Shown here in pieces: positions 3,006 to 16,821 of a stretch of 28,448 nt of DNA. The translations under genes were made by a program, and so were the position numbers. The notes beneath the pieces were generated by a model, which made no database searches, was not told the origin of the DNA, and saw only the letters and a program-made list of their open reading frames with translations. Numbering within the stretch: the first letter of the stretch is position 1; every line of letters starts with the position of its first letter. The stretch comes from Candidatus Thorarchaeota archaeon (GTDB lineage: Archaea; Asgardarchaeota; Thorarchaeia; Thorarchaeales; Thorarchaeaceae), in the NCBI GenBank assembly GCA_048882325.1, contig JBHLRS010000041.1, positions 1 to 28,448 on the forward strand, read 5' to 3'.

Positions 3006-3033
3006 CGGATAAATGAAAGAGTGAGTGATATTA

Positions 3034-3543
3034 ATGATTGACGCAGAGGAAATCGCAAACCATGCTGTGGATCTCAGAAAGGAGAAACGGTATGATGAGG
3101 CTGAATCTCTATTGAGGGATGCCCTCTCGACAGACAAAACAGCATGGCAGTTATGGAATCAACTTGGACATGTCCTAGTGGCAATAGAGAGTTTTACTGA
3201 TGCGGCAGATGCGTTTGAAAAAGCAACAAAGTTGAATCCAAATGGATTTTGGCTCTGGCTCAGTCTCGGTTACGCGAGGAAAGAAATCACGCAGATCGAT
3301 GGTGCTATTGAAGCCACTCTCAAAGCAACTGAATTGAGCACTAAACCAAATGAAATCGGTTCAGCTCTCTACAATCTAGGATGCTACAACTGCCTTGCTG
3401 GTCGGCATCACGAGGCCCTGGATTATCTTGAAAAGGCTTTCCAAAAAGATAAATCCATTAAAGAATGGGCGCTTGATGATTCGGATTTGGACTCTCTGAA
3501 AGAGAATGAACGATTTCAGCAACTTCTGAAGGATGACACGTAA
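3034..3543 (+). CDS. Tetratricopeptide repeat protein
   Basis: TPR repeats (W.QLG..L......A...F.KA..L.P) and a C-terminal 'YNLGC...L.G...EAL.YL.KA...D......A..D.DL.SL.....F..L' capping module. Start is ATG 3034 or GTG 3025. Confidence 0.85.
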   Translation: MIDAEEIANHAVDLRKEKRYDEAESLLRDALSTDKTAWQLWNQLGHVLVAIESFTDAADAFEKATKLNPNGFWLWLSLGYARKEITQIDGAIEATLKATELSTKPNEIGSALYNLGCYNCLAGRHHEALDYLEKAFQKDKSIKEWALDDSDLDSLKENERFQQLLKDDT

Positions 3544-3938: not shown

Positions 3939-4178
3939 ATGACAGAGGAAACAGAAATTCAAGTCATCAACACCCTGAATGGGCGTAGAAATGTTGTAAT
4001 TGCATCTGACAAGAACATCACATACGGTGAGTTGGTCAGGAGTTACTCTCTTGCACCACCTGAAGTGATGTGGACAGTTCTTGATACTGATGGTAACGAT
4101 ATCACTGATCTTCCTATTGGCGAGCGTGAGTGCGTAGCTCACATCACTCCTGGTCAGGACATCGCTGGTGGGGCGTAA
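3939..4178 (+). CDS. Ubiquitin-like (beta-grasp) modifier with C-terminal GG-A
   Basis: 79 aa with a beta-beta-alpha-beta-beta pattern (EIQVIN / RNVVI / TYGELVRSY / WTVLD / VAHITP), ending DIAGGA*. First gene of an E2-E1-JAMM cluster. Confidence 0.8.
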   Translation: MTEETEIQVINTLNGRRNVVIASDKNITYGELVRSYSLAPPEVMWTVLDTDGNDITDLPIGERECVAHITPGQDIAGGA

Positions 4179-4229
4179 TCTAGCTTTCCAGCCTGCAATA
4201 CACACCTGAAAGAGAAGGGGTGAATTAGG

Positions 4230-4634
4230 ATCTGTCCTATTCACATAGAGCAACTAGAAGAGGCCAAAGAGCTATTTCCTACGCTTAAACCTGTAGCACA
4301 GTCAGGTGACTTTGTATTTGCGGTGACTGTTATTATCGATGGTGTTGTTGGAAAGGGCGACAAGTCGAAAATACCATACCACACGTTCATCGATCTCTCA
4401 AACTACCCAAACATAATGCCTGATATCTTCATTCTGAATATTGAGGATAAGGATATCAAACATGTCAATGTCTTCCATCCGAAGCTGTGTCCTAAGCTCA
4501 ACAAGGAGTATCCCTTCATGTGTTTGGGCAACCTTCGGGATGAACTTCAGAAGTACAGGCACGTCATGGCATTCCTCCAGGGAGTGAAGAGGATTTTGAA
4601 CAATGAGAATTTCAACAGTCCCGCCAGAAAGTGA
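4230..4634 (+). CDS. E2 / UBC-fold ubiquitin-like conjugating enzyme
   Basis: 'NYPNIMPDIF' (YP..PP.v), 'KHVNVF' (HPN-like), 'FMCLG' (catalytic Cys), 'ILNNENFNSPA' (LL..PN..SP/DP). The frame is open from 4224 and adds the helix 'HIEQLEEAKELFP'. Start uncertain: ATC 4230 after GGGGTGA; the ORF track uses GTG 4323. Confidence 0.8.
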   Translation: MCPIHIEQLEEAKELFPTLKPVAQSGDFVFAVTVIIDGVVGKGDKSKIPYHTFIDLSNYPNIMPDIFILNIEDKDIKHVNVFHPKLCPKLNKEYPFMCLGNLRDELQKYRHVMAFLQGVKRILNNENFNSPARK

Positions 4635-4689
4635 AGGCTTATTCTGTCCGAGGCAATCGTGATATTTAGCATGACACAACAGAGGAGAT

Positions 4690-6561
4690 GTGGTTCAAAT
4701 GGTGAAATATTCAGAACGTGTGGACCGTCAAGTGGGACTTGTGTATCAGGAACGAATTGAAGACATGCGTATCTTCATTGATGGATCGGGTCCAGTTATT
4801 GACTATCTCGTAACACACCTTGCGTTCCTGGGCTTTGGTACATCACAGGGATTCATTGCGTTCAAGAAGGATCGGAAAGTCAATGATGAGGATGTGAAGG
4901 GTCAGATTCTGTTAAAGGAAGATGACTTGGGACATCCACTCTGGGAGGCAATCAGAGACCGCGTCAAGGATGAAGTTGCTCCTGACATTAATGTCATTGG
5001 CATAGATGATTTAGAAACTTACAACTATGATGCAGTTGTAGCAACACGAAGTGCAAATAGTGAGCCCGAAGACTCTCTAATACTGCCTCAGAGTGAAACT
5101 CCAATTTGGGCTGTCTGCTCCAAGACCGCTGCATATATGGGTAACGCGAAACCGATTTTTGAACCACATAAGTTTGATGTTCTCACCCCCTCTTTAGCTG
5201 CTGTAGCAGCTGGTTTTGCTGTAACAGAAATAATGCGTCGAAACATGTTGATTCGGCCATCCGAACTGATACAGAGAGACTTGAATCTCAGGGTTGTAAT
5301 CCAGCAACGTGGAATTCTTCAGAAAGTTAGAGAGTCTCAAAAGAAGCGGGAGGGTCTCCCATTCAAGGTCAGAATGAAGATTGGCGGGGAGATGCTAAGA
5401 ACTGAGGTGGAAGAGTTCACGTCCACTACCACCCGATATGTGGGAGGAAAAGTCGAGGAAACTGTGGATGTCGACCCAGACCGAATCATTCTGAAGTGTG
5501 GCTTTCCAAGTGGGTCCTATCTCACACGAATGCTTTCTGACCAGATTGAGATTCTGGATGAAGTTGCACCTGACATGTTCAAACCAACAACTTCCCTTCT
5601 CTTTTCACCCATAGCTGAAACCCGAGTGGAGATGAAGGATGACGCCCTCTACATAATAGACAAGGACGTCGATGTTCCTACTGAGCTGAAGGACAAGACA
5701 GTCTTCTTCTTGGGCGTGGGTGGAATCGGGTCCTGGAGCACTGCATTGTTCAACCTATCTAATACTGAGACCTGTACACTGATTCTCAACGACCATGATG
5801 CAGAGGTTGAGGAACACAATCTGAATCGTCAGATTCTTTTCACACGTGAGTCCATCGGAAAACCAAAAGCTGTTGCTGCTCGCAAAAAACTGATGGAAAT
5901 CAATCCAAACAATCATGTCGTATCGTTGCCCTGGGAGACTGAGATTGGCACTGCAAACAGTATTGTGATGAAGGACTTCATGACTCTGGAGGAGTACGAA
6001 GAGAAGAAGAAGGTCGGAGCTGGAAAGACTCAGGTCGTTGATGGTATTGAGATTCCTCTAGACATCATCCGTGAAGAAGCGGTCCTCGCAGATGCTTTAG
6101 CGAAATCAGACCTACTGATATGCGGACCTGACAACATCAGAACACGATATGTTTCCACACTTCTGGGTAAACTTCTCAAGATTCCTGTCATTAGCGCTGG
6201 GGCTGAGCGTTTCGAGGGGAAGGTCGATCTATTCATGCCGGATGCTGATTGCTATGTATGCAGGTATGGCGAAGGGACTAAGGAACAGAGGGAGGTTGTC
6301 AGTTGCACGGGAAAGATTCCAATTCCCTCCATTGTTTCAACAATTGGAACCATTGGTGCCATGCAGACTGCAGTCGCCATCGCAAGCCTTGCTGAACTAG
6401 ATGCAGAAGTCACTCATTTTGTCCAATACTACCCAAGATATCAGATGTTGGCAAAGTGCGAACCTGGAAAAGACTGTAGACACAAGATGAAAGATTCCTG
6501 TCCCCAACACCTAAACTTACCACCTGAGGAGAGCACATTCGAATTCTTTCCGACCAAGTAA
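4690..6561 (+). CDS. E1 ubiquitin-like activating enzyme (ThiF/MoeB family) with N-terminal degenerate and C-terminal intact adenylation domains
   Basis: N-terminal domain: 'YSERVDRQ...RIFIDGSGPV...LAFLGFG...GQILL...DLG' (degenerate). C-terminal domain: 'VFFLGVGGIGS', 'DHDAEVEEHNLNRQILF...IGKPKA', 'ICGPDNIRTR', 'CYVC', candidate catalytic 'VSCTG', and terminal Cys/His residues. Start GTG 4690 or ATG 4699. Confidence 0.9.
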   Translation: MVQMVKYSERVDRQVGLVYQERIEDMRIFIDGSGPVIDYLVTHLAFLGFGTSQGFIAFKKDRKVNDEDVKGQILLKEDDLGHPLWEAIRDRVKDEVAPDINVIGIDDLETYNYDAVVATRSANSEPEDSLILPQSETPIWAVCSKTAAYMGNAKPIFEPHKFDVLTPSLAAVAAGFAVTEIMRRNMLIRPSELIQRDLNLRVVIQQRGILQKVRESQKKREGLPFKVRMKIGGEMLRTEVEEFTSTTTRYVGGKVEETVDVDPDRIILKCGFPSGSYLTRMLSDQIEILDEVAPDMFKPTTSLLFSPIAETRVEMKDDALYIIDKDVDVPTELKDKTVFFLGVGGIGSWSTALFNLSNTETCTLILNDHDAEVEEHNLNRQILFTRESIGKPKAVAARKKLMEINPNNHVVSLPWETEIGTANSIVMKDFMTLEEYEEKKKVGAGKTQVVDGIEIPLDIIREEAVLADALAKSDLLICGPDNIRTRYVSTLLGKLLKIPVISAGAERFEGKVDLFMPDADCYVCRYGEGTKEQREVVSCTGKIPIPSIVSTIGTIGAMQTAVAIASLAELDAEVTHFVQYYPRYQMLAKCEPGKDCRHKMKDSCPQHLNLPPEESTFEFFPTK

Positions 6562-6581
6562 TAAAACTGGAAGGGTAAAAC

Positions 6582-7964
6582 ATGACACAAGGCTATGACA
6601 TCCCACAAAGAATCACAATTGACGAGTCCGTCTATGAGCAATTCAGAGTCTATACAAAACTCTATGGCGCATCTGAATGGGGCGGTGTTTGCGTAGGGTT
6701 TCAAGAAGGCGATACATTCAATGTTCGAGGTATTGTGCTTCCACCACAGAAGATCCAATCTGGAGCATATTGTGAGTTTAGAAAAGAGGTTTTTCCACTT
6801 GTGACCAAACAGATAATCCGCTTGACATCCGATAAGAAGGAGTTATTCAACTTCAGATCCGGAGCTTGGATTCATACGCATCCCGGTTTTGGAGTCTTCT
6901 TCTCGGGTACTGACTTCAATAGTTTCAGAGACCTGACCAGACTATCTCCTGACTTTCTTGGAATTGTCGTCGATCCCATTAATAATGCAATTAAGGCCTT
7001 CAATGGCAATTTGGTTTCAACCACAGAAGCGGTAACACCAGAAGAACCAAGTGAAGACGCTGAATTAGAGGAGGTAGCGACAAAGTCCACCCCGAAGGAA
7101 GAATTTACTGAAGTTGAGGTCGAGATTGTTCAGCCAGATATCAATGACCCCGTCGAGATGGAGTTCCTTCACGAGTTTCGTAGTGTGATGCAGTCTCCTG
7201 CTTCAGCAAGGGAGATTGGTGACACAGAGCTCATAAACACCTTCATCCCGATGGAAGAGAACGAGTTCAAGCTGAGCACGATGAGCATGAAGGTTGATTA
7301 TCTAGAGGACCTCCTTTCCAGAATGGAATCTCGCCCAGTGTACTCCAAAGACTTGGCTGCTGACTGGAGACGACAATTGATGATTGTTAGAGAGCGTTTT
7401 GGTCTACGTGATGCACTGATACCAACCAGTTTCGTTATCAAACCTGAAGGGATTCTCTACATTTGGCATGAAACAATGTCGCACCTATCTGCTGATCTTG
7501 TTGAGTGGAACACCATTTCTAGCATTGAGGTCAAGATTCGCCTTGAGCAGGATTATAGTAACTATGGCTATGCAACAGTGATCAAAGTCATTGAGTTGGT
7601 GGCAAAACGGAAAAAGTCTGGGTTCTTTGGGAGACGGCCAAAAGACCTCAAATTATTGGTATTAGTGTCTGATAGCCGAGACCTCTACCGTACCGTTGTC
7701 GAGTATTTTCCTAGGGCTACAATGTATCGAGACCTTCCTGTTCTGGAAGAACCCGAAGAGGAAGAGGAAGATGAGACTGAGGCTGAAGAAACAGACGCGG
7801 TCGAATCAGATGATGAGGATAAGGATGAGGACCTTGAGGATGATGTTGATGAGGAAGTAGAAGATGACGAATTCGAGGGTCCTGATGACGATGAAGATGC
7901 TGAAGACAAAGCTGAGTACGAAGAAGATGAAGATAACGACATTGATATGGAGATAGATGAATAG
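6582..7964 (+). CDS. JAMM/MPN+ metalloprotease (Rpn11-like) with C-terminal possible PH-like domain and acidic tail
   Basis: 'EWGG' Glu, 'GAWIHTHPGFGVFFSGTD' (HxH-x7-S-x2-D) and 'GIVVDPI'. C-terminal about 70 residues are mostly D/E. Confidence 0.9.
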   Translation: MTQGYDIPQRITIDESVYEQFRVYTKLYGASEWGGVCVGFQEGDTFNVRGIVLPPQKIQSGAYCEFRKEVFPLVTKQIIRLTSDKKELFNFRSGAWIHTHPGFGVFFSGTDFNSFRDLTRLSPDFLGIVVDPINNAIKAFNGNLVSTTEAVTPEEPSEDAELEEVATKSTPKEEFTEVEVEIVQPDINDPVEMEFLHEFRSVMQSPASAREIGDTELINTFIPMEENEFKLSTMSMKVDYLEDLLSRMESRPVYSKDLAADWRRQLMIVRERFGLRDALIPTSFVIKPEGILYIWHETMSHLSADLVEWNTISSIEVKIRLEQDYSNYGYATVIKVIELVAKRKKSGFFGRRPKDLKLLVLVSDSRDLYRTVVEYFPRATMYRDLPVLEEPEEEEEDETEAEETDAVESDDEDKDEDLEDDVDEEVEDDEFEGPDDDEDAEDKAEYEEDEDNDIDMEIDE

Positions 7965-7999
7965 CAAATCTCGAACTTCTAGATGGGAGATATTGCCTC

Positions 8000-8896
8000 T
8001 TGTCACTACCACGTTGGAATAACATGGTGATAATCCATACTCTAATTGATCATCTAGATAGTGAATTTGATACACTGCGTCTATTCATTAAAAGTCCTGC
8101 AACTGATCCCAGACAAAAAGTAGAGCTCATAGGAGTCAATCATCCCTTCAAGGTCACTCATGAGAGGTGGTCTACACTATACAACCTCGAACTCACTCGA
8201 AACGCCTTCAATCCTCATACTCGACAGGCTCATGCAAACATAATTCTAAACATTGATTTTGAGCGGCGCAACCCATACAGAATAAGCGATTCCTCAACTA
8301 TCTCAGATCTTGATGCAATCTGGGAAGAGAATCCTGAGGTGAAAGACTATCTAGAGCCACATGACTATGTTCAATCTGATGCTGAGGAAATTCGGAATTT
8401 GGCTAACTCAATTGTGGACGATGACCAAGGATTCTGGTCTGCTGTCAGAGCAATTGCACAATGGGTGACTACATACATTGCATATAGCTACGACCTGCAA
8501 CACACAAAGTACAGAGGTGCACTTGAAACACTCAAGTCCCGTCGGGGCACTTGTAGCGATTTCGTACATCTCTTTCTCGCTCTCACACGAAGCAAGAATA
8601 TTCCATCCCGCGCAATAGTCGGGCTGCAACAGCACCGACGGTCATGGAAGATGCACTCATGGGCTGAGGTCTACGATCCCCAGATTGGGTGGGCACCACT
8701 TGATCTTGTGGCACAACCTGTGAACCTGACCCTTGGAAACAGTTACATAGGAATCTCTGCCGGGTATAACTGTGAAGTCCGTTTCTATGCATACTACAGC
8801 AGTGACATGGATGAGTCCAACGCTAAGGTCAATCTCAAGCTCAAACAACACTATTTCATCCGGAACCAGCCTATTGAGATTGAATTCTATGATTGA
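8000..8896 (+). CDS. Transglutaminase-like (papain-fold) enzyme
   Basis: 'RGTCSDFVHLFLAL.RS..IPSR.IVG', 'HSWAEVY' and 'GWAPLD' give an intact Cys-His-Asp triad. Start TTG 8000 or ATG 8024. Confidence 0.9.
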   Translation: MSLPRWNNMVIIHTLIDHLDSEFDTLRLFIKSPATDPRQKVELIGVNHPFKVTHERWSTLYNLELTRNAFNPHTRQAHANIILNIDFERRNPYRISDSSTISDLDAIWEENPEVKDYLEPHDYVQSDAEEIRNLANSIVDDDQGFWSAVRAIAQWVTTYIAYSYDLQHTKYRGALETLKSRRGTCSDFVHLFLALTRSKNIPSRAIVGLQQHRRSWKMHSWAEVYDPQIGWAPLDLVAQPVNLTLGNSYIGISAGYNCEVRFYAYYSSDMDESNAKVNLKLKQHYFIRNQPIEIEFYD

Positions 8897-8902
8897 TTGA
8901 AA

Positions 8903-9604
8903 TCATTCACTAGGTGCTTCTGGTTCTGCCTTTTCCTTCTTTTTCTCCTCGAGTGACCCGCCACACCTTCCACATGTTGTCAACTTTGGTTCCTTGAACA
9001 TCATGATACCGCATTGTGAGCATGTGACAACAACATCGCTGTCCTCACCAACCTCTGGAGAGATTTCGATTTCCCTGTGTTTCATTCTGACCCAGGATGT
9101 TCTTCTACTCAATCCACAAGATGGACATGAGTCTGCCTCCTCATAGAGATCGTTCTTACATCTTGGGCAGGTCCCAAGCTTGTTCTGACGTCCTCTCTGG
9201 ACTCTTCTGAGTCTCGAGAGCTCATCATCATAGCGGCTTGTCAGAGCGCGACCTCCGCTATCTGTAAGGGCTGGGAAGTTGATCCTGGAAAAGATCATAG
9301 CATAGACTGGATTCTTGAAGTCAAAGCAGAGATAGTTAGTTTCAGCCCAGATTCGAGTACTTCCAGAAATATTTCTTTTTGACCAGCCAGAGCTACACTC
9401 TCTATGAGTGGAGATAGGAATCGTCAACCTCCAGATTCCAACGATGAACGGTCCAAAGTGCTCCATCGTATTACCCGGTAACAAACAATGCGGACAAATC
9501 TTCAGGGTCTTAGCACCTAACAGACTTGTACCTCTAAATTTCACTGTTCCTTTTGGATAGATAGGGTGTAGCAAACCAAAGTCTTCTATCTTTAAGTTCA
9601 TCAT
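8903..9604 (-). CDS. Multi-zinc-ribbon protein of unknown function
   Basis: CPHC...HREC module followed by 'FDFKNPVYAMIFSRIN', then CPRC-x10-CPSC and CSQC-x12-CGRC ribbons. Starts 3 bp after the stop of the 875-aa gene. Confidence 0.7.
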   Translation of the reverse strand: MMNLKIEDFGLLHPIYPKGTVKFRGTSLLGAKTLKICPHCLLPGNTMEHFGPFIVGIWRLTIPISTHRECSSGWSKRNISGSTRIWAETNYLCFDFKNPVYAMIFSRINFPALTDSGGRALTSRYDDELSRLRRVQRGRQNKLGTCPRCKNDLYEEADSCPSCGLSRRTSWVRMKHREIEISPEVGEDSDVVVTCSQCGIMMFKEPKLTTCGRCGGSLEEKKKEKAEPEAPSE

Positions 9605-9607
9605 TTC

Positions 9608-12235
9608 TTATTCCACCTCCAGTCCACCACTACCTCTTGGTGGAGTACTCGGACCTCCGTCAGATACATCAAACCCGAGTGCTGACATATCCACTTCGAC
9701 CTCTTCTGGTGCAATGGTCGAAAGGTCAAACGCTTTCACAGGTTTCTCACAGTTGGGACAGACCTGCGCATCCTTTGGGAGTTCAAACGAGCAATAGACA
9801 CAGTAGTCTTTCTCCTCGATGATCTTGTTAGCGATGGCAGTATCCCATCCTCCAAACTCTAGAGCTATGATAACCATCTCTCTTGTGATTACTCCTTGGA
9901 GGAAATGCAGATCCATGAGTTGTTTGAATGCTTTGACAATCATATTCTCAGCAGTCAAGTTCGGGTCCACTCTGACAAGCACCTTTCCGATTGGTTCCTC
10001 TGCCCGCTTCACTGCCAATGCTGCAACCTTCAGATATTCCTGAATGAAGTAGTTACTGTATGTCTGTTCTGTCATCACCGCCATCGGTACAAGTGCTAGA
10101 CTTATTGCAGCCCCAAACACCCAGAACATCGGATTAATCAATACGCCGGTCTGTTTGCTTCCGACGAATGGTAATCTGATTGGGTGGCTCAGAAACTCTT
10201 GCATCACAATCAACGCTGGCAATGGGAATCCAGCAAAAGGTTCAGGAAGTATAACAAAGAGTGACTTCTCGACCGTGCTTTTCAGCAAGTGCCCTGCATC
10301 TATCACATCGCCAATGTCCACTGGGAAGTGCTCCATTCTTTCTAGGAAGTCCTGTCGTCTGATGTTGATTACCAAACCAAGAATCTCCTTCGCAACCGCA
10401 CGCATGTAATCGCGGTCCTCATTAGAAAGCGATAACCCCTGATTATCAGCCATGAGTGTAAGCTTATAGTAAGCATGCTTTGCTGACTCTAGTACTGCCT
10501 TAGCAGCCTCCGTCTTACGTCGATAGGTTATGTTGTCGAATCCTGGGGTGCCTTTGAAGATTCTTATAGTCCTCTCAAAATCATCATCTATGATTGTGAG
10601 TGCCTGTTCAGTGATTAGTCTTGGTTCGAGCGTTCCCTTGGTTTCCTTGATCACATCGAGTAGTGCTGCCACATATGCATGATGTTCTTTTGCACCTTCA
10701 GTAGTCCTGTTGACCAGACTCCACTTCTTGAGCCAATCAACAATCTTTCTCACACTCTTCTTATCACCATCGGTTTCCAGAAGCTCTGCTTGCAACGTCA
10801 GCATGAACTGCTGCAGGTTCTTGTCATTGCCATGTGTGACGAGAAGCTTGTTAATCGTCTTCTCCATGTAATTAATCACAAGATCAAATGGTGCCCGATA
10901 GAGCTTCAGTAACGGGCTCACAGCGCCAAATTCTTTTTTCCGAATCTTCTCCATGATGACCGTGCTGAGCGCATATCTGAAGATACCTCGAGTGCCAGGT
11001 TTGGAATGAAGCTTGTCCTGAATCTCCTCTGGGACCTTATTTACAAACGACATTATTGTAACAAGATCGATCTTCTTCTCCTGATATTCCCTGAGAACAC
11101 TCATCACACCAACCTGATTGATGCTGATGTATTCAGGGGTTTCTCGGATGCGACTCTTCAGTCTGTTCATACTGTAAGTCAAGATGCCCTGTGGAATTTC
11201 ATAGTCGTAGAATTTCTTGTGGTCCTTCTTTTCCACGAAGAGTAGTTTATTGAAGGTCTCCTCGTCCTCAAGCTTCGTCTTGTTCTTCTGAATGAGTGCA
11301 GCCATGTTGAAACGCTTGTCAAACTGCACACTCTCGAGACCATCAGTGTCCAAAGGCATCGGTCTGCTGGCATACCCTGCACCAATGAGAGAGATGATGA
11401 TTTTCTCCCATTCCTCCTCCGGTCTCTCAATAATCTCTGTTATCTTAATCCCACTGAGTATGCCATCGAACAACAGCATCTTCTCATAGCCTTTACCGAC
11501 ATTCCGTAGTTCTATGAAGAAGTCCATCTTGTACTCGAAGCTGAATGTTTTGAAGAGGGCTGCAATCCAAGACCGAGACATCGCTGAGTTGTCCCACGAG
11601 CTCATTAACACCTGGGATAGATACGTGATGAACTCTTCATGTAGCTTGGTCTTGGGCTCTAGCTCCTGAATAAGATTTGACATCTTGTTTCTGTCTTCTT
11701 GAATTAACCCCCTTGAGGTATGAGCTTGGGTTCCAAGCCACGCGACTTGCCAGCACATCATTCTGAAATCATTGTCTTTAAGTTTAAGAGCGAACTGCTT
11801 TGACTCCATTCTCTGCGTGACGGCATCACTCAACCATGAAAGGAATGGAAACTCCTTGTGCTCAGCCAGTTCCAAGCACATGCCCATCAGGGTCTTCTCC
11901 GCCCCCTTCTCGAAGCTCTCTGGGAACTCGTTCTCGACGAGGTGTAGGAGGATTGGAGCGGGGTCTCTACGTTTGCCTCCCTTCTTCTTGTATGAGGCAA
12001 AGATTGTGGCGATATACCAGAGTGGTGAGTTCTCCTCGACCTCATAGTCCTCTACGTCACCCTTTTCCTTACTTTTCGCAATGAATCGTTTTACAACCTC
12101 TCTCTTCCTTTTGATTTGCCCAGGAAGGTATATTTTTTGTCGATAGATGAGGATGATTATAACAACAGCAATAGCAGCTAGAGAAATACCTAGATTTACT
12201 AGACTTCCAAAGATCGGAATTTGCATCATTAACAT
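9608..12235 (-). CDS. Large membrane-anchored alpha-helical protein with C-terminal zinc ribbon
   Basis: N-terminal TM helix (LGISLAAIAVVIIILIY), long helical body, a second hydrophobic segment (FWVFGAAISLALVPMAV), and CVYC-x10-CPNC near the C-terminus. Confidence 0.7.
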   Translation of the reverse strand: MLMMQIPIFGSLVNLGISLAAIAVVIIILIYRQKIYLPGQIKRKREVVKRFIAKSKEKGDVEDYEVEENSPLWYIATIFASYKKKGGKRRDPAPILLHLVENEFPESFEKGAEKTLMGMCLELAEHKEFPFLSWLSDAVTQRMESKQFALKLKDNDFRMMCWQVAWLGTQAHTSRGLIQEDRNKMSNLIQELEPKTKLHEEFITYLSQVLMSSWDNSAMSRSWIAALFKTFSFEYKMDFFIELRNVGKGYEKMLLFDGILSGIKITEIIERPEEEWEKIIISLIGAGYASRPMPLDTDGLESVQFDKRFNMAALIQKNKTKLEDEETFNKLLFVEKKDHKKFYDYEIPQGILTYSMNRLKSRIRETPEYISINQVGVMSVLREYQEKKIDLVTIMSFVNKVPEEIQDKLHSKPGTRGIFRYALSTVIMEKIRKKEFGAVSPLLKLYRAPFDLVINYMEKTINKLLVTHGNDKNLQQFMLTLQAELLETDGDKKSVRKIVDWLKKWSLVNRTTEGAKEHHAYVAALLDVIKETKGTLEPRLITEQALTIIDDDFERTIRIFKGTPGFDNITYRRKTEAAKAVLESAKHAYYKLTLMADNQGLSLSNEDRDYMRAVAKEILGLVINIRRQDFLERMEHFPVDIGDVIDAGHLLKSTVEKSLFVILPEPFAGFPLPALIVMQEFLSHPIRLPFVGSKQTGVLINPMFWVFGAAISLALVPMAVMTEQTYSNYFIQEYLKVAALAVKRAEEPIGKVLVRVDPNLTAENMIVKAFKQLMDLHFLQGVITREMVIIALEFGGWDTAIANKIIEEKDYCVYCSFELPKDAQVCPNCEKPVKAFDLSTIAPEEVEVDMSALGFDVSDGGPSTPPRGSGGLEVE

Positions 12236-12528: not shown

Positions 12529-15500
12529 ATGTCGGAACTTCCATGGACAAGCACCCTTCAGGTGAATAGAATGTATGACCTTCTAGACGAGGGTCTGGTA
12601 GTACTGGATAACTTGGGTGTTATTGTCCACTCAAACCAAGCATTCGCAGAATCTCTACAGTATTCGACCGGGGATCTGTTGGATTACCGCTTTGATGATC
12701 TCGTTGCAGATGAACAGAAGGGTGTTTTTTCCCCACATCTGATAGCGGATGCAAGTCGATCAATTCAACTGACCTTGATGAGCAGGGATGGTGAACGGCT
12801 AGGAAAGAAAGTGAAGGCTTTAGGTCTCATTGAAGATGAGTTGCCTAAGGGATTCTTCCTCATAATAACCGACAGTGAAGAGGTTCATCCTGACTTTGAG
12901 AAAATTATATCGGGCGCACATCTCAAAATGGTTACGATTGACCGCGACCTCAACATTACTTATGTAAATCCAGCCTTCAGCGAAACTGCTGGTAAGATTA
13001 TCGGTACTCCAGTTTTAATGGGTGTCGAGTCTCAATTTCGCGAGGAGTTCAGATTAAAACTTGAGAAAGTCATGAGAGAGGGCACAAACCAACAGATGGA
13101 GTTCTCTGAAACTTTGGAGGGACGAAGAACCACTTGGCATGAGCTCAGGATTGGCGCAATTCGTGATGGTCCGGATATTGTTGGTGCAGTGATTGCAGGT
13201 TATGAAATAACGGACAGAGTCTTGGCTATGCGAGCACTGGGAGAGAGCGAGGGGAAGTTTAGAGGTGTTTTTGAACATGCAAATGATGGAATCATACTAG
13301 CAGATGAAGAAGGTCGAATAATTGCAATTAATGCCGCTCAAGAGAAGTTCTTTGGCATTAATCGTGAAGATGTAATTGGGTTGCCTCTCTGGGAAGTTCA
13401 AGCTTCGATCTTATCAGAGAATAAACAAACCTCCGAGCATCAGATGTATCTCCAAGAGGCCCTCTCCTCATTCTTCAAGATGGGGACAGCACCATGGTTA
13501 GAGAAAACGATACATGGTAAATTCACCCACCCTCATGATGGGACTCAGAAGACTTTCAGCCAGACAGCATTCCGGATACCCTCTACTAAGGGCTTTATGC
13601 TCTGTTCCTTTACCTGGGATACAACCGAACAGACACGTCTTGAAGAGGAACGAAAGGCATCTGAACACAGATACAAGGCTCTCTTTGATGAAAACAATGA
13701 TGGCGTTTTCATTCTGAGTCTAAGTGGAAAATTCCTCGAAGTAAATGCAAGAGCATCTGAACTACTTGGCTACGACCGTCCTGAGGACCTTGTTGACCTC
13801 CCATTCTCAGAAACTATTGTTGAAGGTGAAAGAGCTGAAAGCATCAAACAGTTTGAGAGGATAATGGGCGGAGCTAAAGTGCCCATTTTTGAACGCACGC
13901 TTCTGAAACGTGATGGTACTCATGTCCTTGCTGAGCTGAGTGTTTCACTTGTCTTGGACAGGGATGGTAATCCGCAACATGTTCAGACCATTGTGAGAGA
14001 TATCACTGAGAGAAAAGTAACTCAAGCAGCTCTGGATGAATCTCGTGAAAGATACGAGCTCGCATTGCAAGGCGCAGACCTTGGTGTATGGGATTGGAAT
14101 GCTGAAGCTGACGAGATGATCTTCTCAAAAAGATGGGCTGAGATGCTTGGTTATTCAATTGAAGAAATCGAGCCCAACTATGCTGGGTGGGAAAAACTAG
14201 TTCATCCTGAGGATCTTAAACTCATGGAAGAACGATGGAACTCGCATGTTGATGGCATTACTCCTTTCTATTCCTCCGAACACAGAATGCGTACAAAGAC
14301 TGGTGGATGGAAATGGGTTTTGGAACGCGGAAAAGTAGTAGAGTGGAATGAGAAGGGAGGAACGAGGCGAGCTACTGGGACTCTACTTGACATCACTGAA
14401 CGAAAAGTGATTGAGAAAGCACTTGAACAGAGTGAGCAGAAGTATCGTAACCTATTGGAGAACATTCCTCAAAGGGTATTTTACAAAAACCGAGAATCGA
14501 TTTACGTTGCATGTAATCCAGCATTTGCAAGGGACTTAGAGAAGGTTCCAACTGAAATCATAGGGAAGACGGATTTTGACCTGTATCCGATGGAACTAGC
14601 TGAGAGCTTCAGAACCACAGACAAGGAGGTTCTAGAAAACTTACAAACATGGGAGAGTGACCAAGAATACATCACAAGCGGGGAACCTCGGATTGCACAC
14701 ATTGTGAAAGCTCCGGTGAGAGATGACGAAGGCACGATAGTTGGTATTCTTGGTATATTCTGGGACATTACTGAAAATACCCTCTCAGCACAAGCTTTGA
14801 GGGCTTCAGAAACGAAGTATCGTAATCTCGTAGAACAGTCTTTGATGGGTATAGCCATCGTTCCTCGCGGCTTTGAGAGTATTGCTTTTGTCAATCCTAC
14901 ATTGTGCAATTTACTGGGCTATTCGGAAGAAGAAATCTTGGCAATGAGTCCTGAACAGGTCAGTGCATTAGTTCATAAAGATGATGTGGTTCTCATTGAC
15001 GATTACCTGAACAATCGACTACAAGACAAGCAACCTGGTGAGGCACTCCAAGTGAGAATGATCCATAATGATGGTTCAGAGATTTGGGTTGACTTCTCTG
15101 CTGGTGCCATCGAATATGGTGAAACTCAAGCTGTTCAGGTTACGGTTGTTGACATCACGAAAAGAATCGAAGCCGAGCTTGAGGTTCTTCGGGATCGCCA
15201 AGTGTTCCGCACAATAGCTGAAGGTGCAATCCAGGCAAAGGACACGGGAGAGTTAAGTCAAGAGATTTTGAAAGGACTTGTCAGTTCGCTCGAATTTGAT
15301 TTCGGAACTTTCCGGCTTTATGACGAGAAAACGAATACACTCCGATATTCTGCTTTGTTTGGTGTTGAGATATCTGATACTCGTCCTGAACTTCCAGTGA
15401 CTCAGGAATTCAGCGAGGAATACATCATTGTCAGAACCGCTCTTACAAAGATACCAGAATTCATCTCCGATATAGAGGTAGAGATTGGGGATAAACCCTA

Positions 15501-16821
15501 TTTGAATCGACTCAAGAAATTCAATGCTGCATCAGTGGTCGCATATCCAATCTTAGATGACGCAAACGACCTTCTTGGGATTCTAAGCCTAGTGACACGT
15601 ACTCAACGAACGTTTACTGATGGTGACAGAGAGATTTTTTCTGCCATTGTGAATATGCTTGGATCTGTGCTTGAACGGAAAAAAGCTGAGAAAGCACTGC
15701 AAATCAGTGAACGCAGATATCGTGAACTTCTCAGGAACATCTCTGAAGGTATGGCTATCATCGATTTGGATGAGAAGATCCTCTTTGTGAACAAAGCCTT
15801 CGCTGAGATGTTGGATTACACGCAGAGTGAACTTGTCGGGATGAATATCCTTGATATAATCGCGGAAGAAGATAAAGAGTTGATCCTTGATCAGACCAAA
15901 ATACGACGAGAAGGGGTGAGCTCGTCGTATACACATCGTTTTGTCAGAAAGGATGGAGAACATAGAATTGTCAGAGCATCTGCAGTTCCCTCTAGAGATG
16001 ATGATGGACAGGTTGACGGGACCATCGCGGTTGTTACTGACATTACCGAAAGAATTCAGAAGGACCGCGAAATCAAGAAACTCAATGAGGAGCTCGCACA
16101 AAGGGTTGAAGAAAGAACTGCAGAGTTGGCTGCAGCAAACAAAGAGCTGGAAGCATTCTCATACTCCGTTTCTCACGACCTCCGGGCACCTCTCAGGACT
16201 ATAGACGGATTTAGTCAGGCATTGTTGGAGGACTATTCTGATTCTATTGATGATACAGGACATGATTTTCTTAGAAGAGTGCGGTCTGCAGCGACTCATA
16301 TGGGTTCATTGATTGAGGACCTGCTTGTATTGTCGAGAGTTACTCGAACGGAGATGGAGCGAGTTGATGTTGACCTCTCATTAATCGCAAGTGAAATCAT
16401 TGGTGATTTGCAAGAAATAGACCCAGACCGACAGGTGCACATCAGAATCTCTGATGAGGTGCATGTACGTTGTGATCAACGATTGATCAAGCTTGTTCTC
16501 CAAAATCTTCTCGATAATGCTTGGAAATTCACAAGTAAGATTCCGGATGCCTTAATTGAGTTTGGCTGTCAAGATCAAGATGGAGAATCTGTCTTTTATG
16601 TCCGAGATAATGGTGCTGGATTCAATATGGACTACAGTGACAAACTATTCGTTCCATTTCAGCGACTGCATCAAGCTGAGGAATTCGAAGGCTCTGGAAT
16701 CGGACTGGCTACTGTGCAACGTATTATAAACCGTCATGGTGGTAGAGTATGGGCAGAGAGTGTTGTTGACGGAGGCTCAACATTCTACTTTACCATCCCT
16801 GAAAGGAGGAGCAAGGAATAA
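12529..16821 (+). CDS. Cytoplasmic sensor histidine kinase with about 8 PAS domains and a GAF domain
   Basis: Repeated PAS/PAC motifs (SE.KYR.L.E ... DITERK), a GAF-like segment, H-box 'LEAFSYSVSHDLRAPLR', N-box 'NLLDNAWKFT', and G boxes 'DNGAGF', 'GSGIGLA'. No TM segments seen. Confidence 0.95.
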   Translation: MSELPWTSTLQVNRMYDLLDEGLVVLDNLGVIVHSNQAFAESLQYSTGDLLDYRFDDLVADEQKGVFSPHLIADASRSIQLTLMSRDGERLGKKVKALGLIEDELPKGFFLIITDSEEVHPDFEKIISGAHLKMVTIDRDLNITYVNPAFSETAGKIIGTPVLMGVESQFREEFRLKLEKVMREGTNQQMEFSETLEGRRTTWHELRIGAIRDGPDIVGAVIAGYEITDRVLAMRALGESEGKFRGVFEHANDGIILADEEGRIIAINAAQEKFFGINREDVIGLPLWEVQASILSENKQTSEHQMYLQEALSSFFKMGTAPWLEKTIHGKFTHPHDGTQKTFSQTAFRIPSTKGFMLCSFTWDTTEQTRLEEERKASEHRYKALFDENNDGVFILSLSGKFLEVNARASELLGYDRPEDLVDLPFSETIVEGERAESIKQFERIMGGAKVPIFERTLLKRDGTHVLAELSVSLVLDRDGNPQHVQTIVRDITERKVTQAALDESRERYELALQGADLGVWDWNAEADEMIFSKRWAEMLGYSIEEIEPNYAGWEKLVHPEDLKLMEERWNSHVDGITPFYSSEHRMRTKTGGWKWVLERGKVVEWNEKGGTRRATGTLLDITERKVIEKALEQSEQKYRNLLENIPQRVFYKNRESIYVACNPAFARDLEKVPTEIIGKTDFDLYPMELAESFRTTDKEVLENLQTWESDQEYITSGEPRIAHIVKAPVRDDEGTIVGILGIFWDITENTLSAQALRASETKYRNLVEQSLMGIAIVPRGFESIAFVNPTLCNLLGYSEEEILAMSPEQVSALVHKDDVVLIDDYLNNRLQDKQPGEALQVRMIHNDGSEIWVDFSAGAIEYGETQAVQVTVVDITKRIEAELEVLRDRQVFRTIAEGAIQAKDTGELSQEILKGLVSSLEFDFGTFRLYDEKTNTLRYSALFGVEISDTRPELPVTQEFSEEYIIVRTALTKIPEFISDIEVEIGDKPYLNRLKKFNAASVVAYPILDDANDLLGILSLVTRTQRTFTDGDREIFSAIVNMLGSVLERKKAEKALQISERRYRELLRNISEGMAIIDLDEKILFVNKAFAEMLDYTQSELVGMNILDIIAEEDKELILDQTKIRREGVSSSYTHRFVRKDGEHRIVRASAVPSRDDDGQVDGTIAVVTDITERIQKDREIKKLNEELAQRVEERTAELAAANKELEAFSYSVSHDLRAPLRTIDGFSQALLEDYSDSIDDTGHDFLRRVRSAATHMGSLIEDLLVLSRVTRTEMERVDVDLSLIASEIIGDLQEIDPDRQVHIRISDEVHVRCDQRLIKLVLQNLLDNAWKFTSKIPDALIEFGCQDQDGESVFYVRDNGAGFNMDYSDKLFVPFQRLHQAEEFEGSGIGLATVQRIINRHGGRVWAESVVDGGSTFYFTIPERRSKE

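Follow-up and report, generated by a model that had tools for sequence, protein, structure and literature searches.

Introduction

An inactive adenylation domain (IAD) followed by an active adenylation domain (AAD) in a single chain is treated as a hallmark of the canonical eukaryotic E1 enzymes. In UBA1, UBA6 and UBA7 the chain comprises about 1000 amino acids, an arginine is supplied by the IAD, and a UFD is present at the C-terminus. The type II BilD of Ensifer aridi (PDB 8TZ0 and 8TYZ; PMC10557695) is also a one-chain IAD-AAD pseudo-dimer, in which Arg9 from the IAD completes the AAD site, and an about 80-aa helical CYS domain lies in the crossover loop. Its BilABCD operon encodes a ubiquitin-like protein (Ubl), an E2 and a JAB peptidase, with no E3. 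BilD has been read as a sign of common ancestry (PMC10557695). The canonical archaeal E1s of Caldiarchaeum and Asgard (PMC5654768, PMC9192718) are single-domain enzymes that are encoded beside Ubl and E2 genes, with ubiquitin, a UQ_con-type E2 and a RING E3. Ubiquitin has been reported to be lacking in Thorarchaeota (PMC9192718).

Here we analyze a tandem E1 gene from a Candidatus Thorarchaeota archaeon, in a 28,448-nucleotide stretch of DNA (contig JBHLRS010000041.1, termed the window), to which coordinates refer unless another locus is named. From sequence comparison, a predicted structure and analogy with known enzymes we propose, with a probability of about 0.78, that it encodes a monomeric, pseudo-dimeric E1 that starts the Ubl-conjugation cascade of its own operon, and that the system is accessory, horizontally moved and convergent with Uba1.

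The operon and its surroundings

The E1 gene is the third in a co-directional run that encodes a Ubl, an E2-like protein, the E1, a JAB peptidase and a transglutaminase-like protein. Other Thorarchaeota loci, and one more distant Asgard-type locus, have the five genes in the same order, and the GC content of the operon is that of the host. Promoter and terminator scans gave results no better than chance, and no known defence or mobility genes flank it within the window.

The Ubl (3939..4178, + strand) has 79 amino acids and ends in GG plus one residue, so that it needs trimming; a GG motif is found at or near the C-terminus in 14 of 16 operon homologues. Its fold is suggested by weak profile matches. 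The Ubl profile retrieves ubiquitin and SAMP2 from the PDB (polyubiquitin at E 6e-4, single domains at about 0.45) and four members match Ub-RnfH weakly; the profile did not align with canonical Asgard ubiquitin.

The E2-like protein (4230..4634, +) comprises about 134 amino acids, with an HxN motif and Cys98. H78 and C98 are invariant in 24 homologues, and the profile aligns HxN and Cys with those of a canonical Asgard E2 (90%, E 1.6e-6). There is no ATG, GTG or TTG at the start position (4230-4232), and the first GTG is at 4323; the probable start is ATC. An ATC, ATT or ATA codon occupies this position in five Thorarchaeota-type loci (the window, L008 at 3847, L092 at about 1039, L110 at 4092 and L108 at about 7568), with a purine-rich site upstream, and the codon is ATG in L006. 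The non-AUG start is probably conserved, limiting the level of E2. Gene callers truncate the protein with the non-AUG start. An orphan second copy of the E2 gene, 69% identical, lies elsewhere in the host genome, beside a pyruvate-dehydrogenase-type cluster (L111 6505-6936; G000:C28:27537-27911), and a similar extra copy is found in two other genomes of the genus, with an internal stop in one of them.

The gene following the E1 (6582..7964, +) encodes a JAB/MPN+ peptidase in which the E, HxH, S, D motif is intact and which also has a C-terminal domain and an acidic tail (Pfam JAB, E 0.007; PADLOC JAB, E 1e-5). Generic AAD and JAB matches were the only ones returned by PADLOC. The last gene (8000..8896, +) encodes a transglutaminase-like protein with a Cys-His-Asp triad (Pfam Transglut_core, E 3.5e-23). 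It has the same position in L006, L008, L108 and L110, and has been observed only among Asgard versions of the operon.

Two zinc-ribbon proteins of 233 and 875 amino acids are encoded at 8903-12235 (- strand), converging on the operon. L008, L108 and L110 keep them next to it, and L006 has, not far from its operon, a protein whose zinc-ribbon end is similar. The 875-aa protein has a paralogue on contig C51. These proteins are a possible target, adaptor or E3-like partner of the operon. Upstream there is a PadR-methyltransferase-like regulator (1986-2891, -) and a TPR protein (3025-3543, +), whose gene is likewise upstream in L008. A 1430-aa multi-PAS histidine kinase (12529-16821) and the further same-strand genes that follow it appear unrelated to the operon.

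Domain organization of the E1 enzyme

An open reading frame for 623 amino acids beginning with GTG (4690-6561, +) holds all the motifs that were quoted in the initial annotation: YSERVDRQ, IFIDGSGPV, GQILL..DLG and SLAAVAAGFAVTE in the N-terminal part, and GVGGIG, HNLNRQ, CYVC and VSCTG in the C-terminal part. The start is more likely to be the ATG at 4699 than the GTG at 4690, because a GAGGAG site (4682-4687) lies 11 nt upstream of the former and only 2 nt from the latter. This gives a tandem IAD-AAD enzyme of 620 amino acids (P0001; 4699..6561, +).

The AAD lies in residues 323-620 (5665..6558, +) and matches Pfam ThiF with E 1.8e-35; the closest sequences in the PDB are ThiF and MoeB (E 7e-17). 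Conservation was counted in 58 diverse homologues. The ATP-binding glycine loop GVGGIG (residues 339-344; 5713..5730, +) has invariant G339, G341 and G344, and in the NLNRQ motif (residues 374-378; 5818..5832, +) N374, N376, R377 and Q378 are invariant, as are K390 and D478. A variable insert of about 45 amino acids occurs near residues 415-460. The cysteines C518 and C521 of a CxxC motif (6250..6261, +) are conserved in 50 and 48 of the 58 sequences, and by analogy with ThiF, MoeB and BilD they would bind zinc, with C601 and H604 as likely partners. The candidate thioester cysteine is Cys536 (6304..6306, +), the cysteine of VSCTG. It is invariant in all 58 rows and aligns with the crossover-loop cysteine of MoeB. 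In every row the next helix begins only 13-18 residues after Cys536, which leaves the family with no helical CYS domain. Nor did any of the 58 members match the SCCH domain (PF10585), and there is no insert after C536.

The N-terminal 190 or so residues had been annotated as a ThiF-like repeat, and this is borne out by profile comparison. Against a ThiF/MoeB profile built without family members, the family profile of residues 1-190 (4699..5268, +) reaches 98.2% (E 6.6e-14), and against that of its own C-terminal domain 96% (E 2.7e-9). With the single N-terminal sequence as query, single-domain Asgard E1s were retrieved with E values from 5e-5 to 8e-4. These sequence matches indicate a shortened repeat of the ThiF domain, beyond chance. 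The lack of nucleotide-binding motifs also holds across the family, as NLxRQ is found in none of the 58 N-terminal domains and any GxGxxG within the first 60 residues in only five. A point missed in the initial annotation is that the domain is not entirely dead: each of the 56 rows covering R10-Q11 retains these two residues. Arg10 (4726..4728, +) aligns with the arginine of the RYxRQ motif of ThiF and is equivalent to Arg9 of BilD. It is a putative arginine finger that would contact ATP. The RQ dipeptide is at the N-terminus of the chain in 55 of the 58 rows and directly precedes the AAD in just three. A homodimer of AADs would therefore be without an arginine finger, and the IAD would have to complete the site as Arg9 does in BilD.

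Between the two domains is a family-specific region (residues 191-322; 5269..5664, +) of 86-146 amino acids across the family. The expectation of a beta-rich linker of about 130 residues is upheld by the predicted structure, with strands at 196-202, 234-248, 251-268 and 299-320 and helices at 206-215 and 274-281. What fold it takes had also been asked, and here no known fold was matched. Profile comparisons with regions of Uba1, BilD and ThiF were at chance; no Pfam or profile match was found, including FCCH and the four-helix bundle; a language-model search gave no usable match; and the rows of a wide structural search were taken up by E1 and Rossmann entries. The linker was poorly modelled on its own, and folding of residues 1-300 in the absence of an alignment yielded a pLDDT of 35, too low for use. 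A new fold is not implied, as part of the region may be the C-terminal strands of the IAD itself.

Predicted structure of the E1 and of its complex with E2

The structure of the E1 was predicted using AlphaFold2 with 40 sequences, giving a model with pLDDT 89 and pTM 0.89. BilD is the best-ranked structural match (Z 29.8, 385 residues, 3.0 Å), with residues 4-618 of the model lying on 5-500 of BilD. UBA7, UBA1 and UBA6 follow with Z of about 27 (26-28) over 393-413 residues, and ThiF and MoeB cover only 215-231 residues. Both domains fit in one rigid superposition, and in the model the N-terminal domain is therefore placed at the position of the IAD, a check that the initial annotation had proposed with BilD and Uba1. 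The rigid superposition and the profile match together speak against an N-terminal domain without a Rossmann/ThiF fold. The suggested Uba1/BilD-like architecture applies to no more than the two-domain scaffold; the CYS/SCCH domain is absent. The chain ends about 35 residues beyond the last strand of the AAD, with no beta-grasp in the model. The only stretch of low confidence (pLDDT under 50) is residues 535-538, around Cys536, as expected of a mobile loop.

The structure bears on whether the enzyme might function as a conventional AAD-AAD homodimer, the N-terminal domain being just a scaffold or an appendage for binding partners. The model puts that domain at the place of the second ThiF subunit, and the arginine-finger segment that the AAD lacks is invariant in the IAD. 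We regard such a homodimer as very improbable, and the intramolecular pseudo-dimer as the form in which the enzyme would act.

Prediction of the E1-E2 complex, proposed in the initial annotation as a check, gave a score of 0.55, compared with 0.00 for the best control. The mark used is reached by 58 of 80 solved complexes and by two of 110 mismatches; scores of 0.60 or under include only seven of the 80 solved complexes and both of those mismatches. The runs have at least 68% of contacts in common, with a partner pLDDT of at least 81. The score lends weak support to a complex, and may reflect likeness to solved E1-E2 complexes.

Distribution of the family and variants of the locus

The closest named homologues of the E1 are from Thorarchaeota. 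Full-length relatives are found in other archaea (Hod-, Hel-, Loki- and Heimdallarchaeota, Thermoprotei and Poseidoniales) and in bacteria (Actinoplanes, Dactylosporangium, Streptomyces, Pirellulaceae, Aminicenantes and Chloroflexota). The family is uncommon in every group sampled. It was found in 4 of 400 Asgard genomes, a count that includes 3 of the 86 from the host family, and in 4 of 121 genomes of the Poseidoniales order, and there were three strong matches in 201 genomes of the Micromonosporaceae family. These counts are lower bounds, because the genomes are incomplete and the queries were single.

Homologues of the Ubl, E2 and JAB proteins flank the E1 in Asgard, Thermoprotei, Poseidoniales, actinobacterial, planctomycete, Aminicenantes and Chloroflexota loci. 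All the loci examined in detail have a related E2 or Ubl, usually with a JAB gene too, and JAB homologues adjoin the E1 in nearly all loci. In nearly all, an E2 with the invariant HxN and Cys lies beside the tandem E1, often in two copies. The actinobacterial order is Ubl-E1-E2-E2-JAB-JAB, followed in Dactylosporangium by a double-AAA ATPase. At one Poseidoniales locus (L025 2625-10518) there are two Ubl-E2-like fusions with an identical Ubl part, and a Cdc48-like double-AAA gene between two paralogous tandem E1 genes.

A number of individual loci have further features. In the Poseidoniales-like L003 the gene preceding the E1 (7558-8001) appears by eye to encode a GG-ending Ubl with an in-frame fusion to a KOW (NusG/Spt5-like) tail, an arrangement that recalls the ubiquitin-ribosomal protein fusions, and in the next gene before it (6818-7504) a Ubl is apparently joined to a TRAM-like domain, again by eye. 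Two relatives have protein kinase genes next to the operon: L001, with a VWA-PP2C-kinase trio (4041-7485), and the Thermoprotei locus L009, with a kinase (6984-9290). Such a combination is characteristic of loci for stress or conflict.

The host genome is 93% complete and contains one other ThiF-family gene, encoding a single-domain enzyme of the ThiF/UbaA type. Canonical Asgard ubiquitin, E2 and RING used as tblastn queries gave no match in it; PF00179 (UQ_con E2) also gave none, in a search whose controls were likewise silent. This is in line with the earlier report for Thorarchaeota (PMC9192718).

The operon could stand in for the canonical ubiquitin system that is absent in Thorarchaeota, performing housekeeping quality control by tagging, Cdc48 unfolding and degradation. 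The failure to find canonical ubiquitin, E2 and RING in the host would suit such a role, as would the complete identity of the Ubl between the host genome and L008, and the Cdc48-type double-AAA genes within the actinobacterial and Poseidoniales operons. Yet no Cdc48 gene was found in the Asgard operons examined, and a housekeeping system would hardly be expected in only 3 of the 86 host-family genomes. We consider housekeeping a possible role and a less likely one. Because the family is rare and spread across domains, a conflict or stress cassette is, by a slight preference, the role that we favor.

Phylogeny and the origin of the tandem layout

The initial annotation held that an archaeal IAD-AAD enzyme would bear on the origin of the canonical eukaryotic E1. 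This is not sustained. The family is not specific to archaea, just about 1% of the searched Asgard genomes yielded it, it has no CYS/SCCH domain, and its AADs form a clade of their own near ThiF, MoeB and UbaA.

A tree of AADs was calculated from 63 rows and 233 columns under a mixture model, with two rows for BilD, several 'canonical' rows of unknown origin and none for Uba2 or Uba3. The AADs of the family form one clade (100/99) that is sister to ThiF/MoeB/UbaA (96/86), and those of Uba1 group with single-domain archaeal E1s (85/98). A single AAD clade of the family with Uba1 was rejected in this set lacking Uba2 and Uba3 (AU test, p=0.015). BilD forms a long separate branch whose placement is unsure. 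A short IAD tree (125 columns) weakly pairs the Uba1 IAD with the Uba1 AAD (SH-aLRT 84), and not with the family IAD.

There is a second family of tandem ThiF E1s of about 470-500 amino acids, with no beta-rich linker, found in Nanoarchaeota, Woesearchaeota, Methanosarcinales, Fraserbacteria and Acetothermia (loci L052, L058, L060, L061, L064, L065, L071, L073 and L075). It forms a separate clade (100/98) beside single-domain Asgard E1s. A helical-type (CYS-type) insert after the PCTL cysteine is already present in some single-domain Asgard E1s.

These data can be set against the proposal that the eukaryotic single-chain E1s (Uba1/Uba6/Uba7) have this family as their sister or ancestor, with fusion of the domains occurring in Asgard and SCCH, FCCH and UFD being added later in eukaryotes. 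That would accord with the presence of the family in Thor-, Hod-, Hel-, Loki- and Heimdallarchaeota, with the domain order and relative orientation that it shares with Uba1, and with the match of its IAD to the Uba1 IAD profile (96%, E 1.9e-9). The IAD of the family is, however, closer to ThiF, to canonical archaeal E1s and to the second tandem family than to the Uba1 IAD. The AU test, the position of Uba1 with single-domain archaeal E1s, some carrying the CYS-type insert, the pairing in the short IAD tree and the low prevalence in Asgard genomes all argue in the same direction, and we find the proposal improbable. From the trees, the IAD-AAD layout probably arose several times, and that of this family independently of Uba1.

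The sister relationship to ThiF/MoeB/UbaA raises a different alternative, that the enzyme activates a sulfur carrier for biosynthesis and is not an E1 for protein conjugation. Sulfur-transfer operons also contain JAB, Ubl and E1 genes, and the crossover-loop cysteine is MoeB-like. Against this stand the E2 with invariant HxN and Cys in nearly all loci, the separate single-domain ThiF/UbaA-type enzyme of the host, and the lack of any rhodanese, cysteine synthase or cofactor gene among those seen next to the E1. A sulfur-carrier enzyme is thus an improbable reading, and we retain that of a conjugating E1.

Comparison with known E1 systems

By the features tested, the family E1 is outside the Bil, Uba1, ThiF/MoeB and canonical Asgard E1 families. 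With BilD it shares the one-chain pseudo-dimer, the IAD-supplied arginine finger (here by alignment), the zinc site and an operon that has Ubl, E2 and JAB genes and lacks an E3. The two differ in that sequence identity is 15%, they fall in separate clades, and the family E1 is without the CYS domain and has the extra beta-rich inter-domain region. The IAD of type II BilD matches Prok-E2_C (PF14459), whereas none of the 58 family members does so at E 0.1, and the family IAD profile scores 0.5% with the two BilD IADs. BilB is an E2 of the CEHH type. In the family E2 the HxN is followed by the cysteine with no CEHH motif, none of the 24 members matches Metal_CEHH in Pfam, and there is just a weak language-model likeness to BilB (0.84). 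Transglutaminase or Cdc48 partners in the operon are a further difference from the Bil system.

The relation to UBA1, UBA6 and UBA7 is similarly mixed. IAD and AAD have the same order and relative orientation, with the arginine coming from the IAD, but the family E1 has 620 rather than about 1000 amino acids and is without the SCCH domain and the UFD, and no FCCH/4HB was recognized in its sequence. In ThiF, MoeB, UbaA and UBA5 we find the same adenylation motifs, the CxxC and the cysteine in a short crossover loop. Compared with these the family has a fused degenerate copy in place of the second subunit, an AAD without its own arginine finger, and a co-encoded E2. It also falls below all the ThiF/MoeB/UbaA equivalog cut-offs. 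The likeness to the canonical archaeal E1s lies in the neighboring Ubl and E2 genes; those enzymes are single-domain and group with Uba1, and the present operon is without ubiquitin, a UQ_con-type E2 and a RING E3. By analogy, its adenylation step would resemble that of BilD and Uba1, and its cysteine step that of UBA5 and MoeB; here the subject is the family E1 of the operon.

We found no description of the family in the literature covered, which did not include the 2009 E1-superfamily survey of Burroughs, so that an earlier mention is possible.

A proposed conjugation cascade

We suggest the following sequence of events. The JAB peptidase would remove the last residue of the Ubl, exposing the Gly-Gly. 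The AAD would bind ATP and adenylate the Ubl, with Arg10 provided by the IAD across the internal interface; by its fold and conserved residues the IAD replaces the second subunit of the ThiF/MoeB homodimer. Cys536 would then form the thioester in its short mobile loop in the manner of UBA5, and not on a swinging helical CYS domain. The Ubl would be transferred to Cys98 of the HxN-type E2, and target lysines modified without a RING E3. Reversal would be carried out by JAB, perhaps also by the transglutaminase-fold protein. In the actinobacterial and Poseidoniales versions the co-encoded Cdc48-type ATPase probably unfolds the tagged proteins.

Significance

It appears, by a modest margin of belief, that this cross-domain family of Ubl operons, with its minimal CYS-less IAD-AAD E1, HxN E2 and Cdc48 or transglutaminase partners, has been undescribed, that it provides a working tagging cascade in some Thorarchaeota, and that single-chain pseudo-dimeric E1s have evolved up to four times: in the family here, in a DPANN-centred family, in BilD and in Uba1. 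A prokaryotic tandem family lying apart from Uba1 in the tree suggests that the IAD-AAD layout is easy to reinvent, and architecture alone would therefore be unfit for tracing the origins of the eukaryotic E1s. The family offers a minimal E1 in which to study the asymmetry of the pseudo-dimer without a CYS domain, and since cultured Streptomyces and Actinoplanes carry it, bench tests are feasible. For a few Thorarchaeota, reported to be without ubiquitin (PMC9192718), the operon would provide a conjugation cascade.
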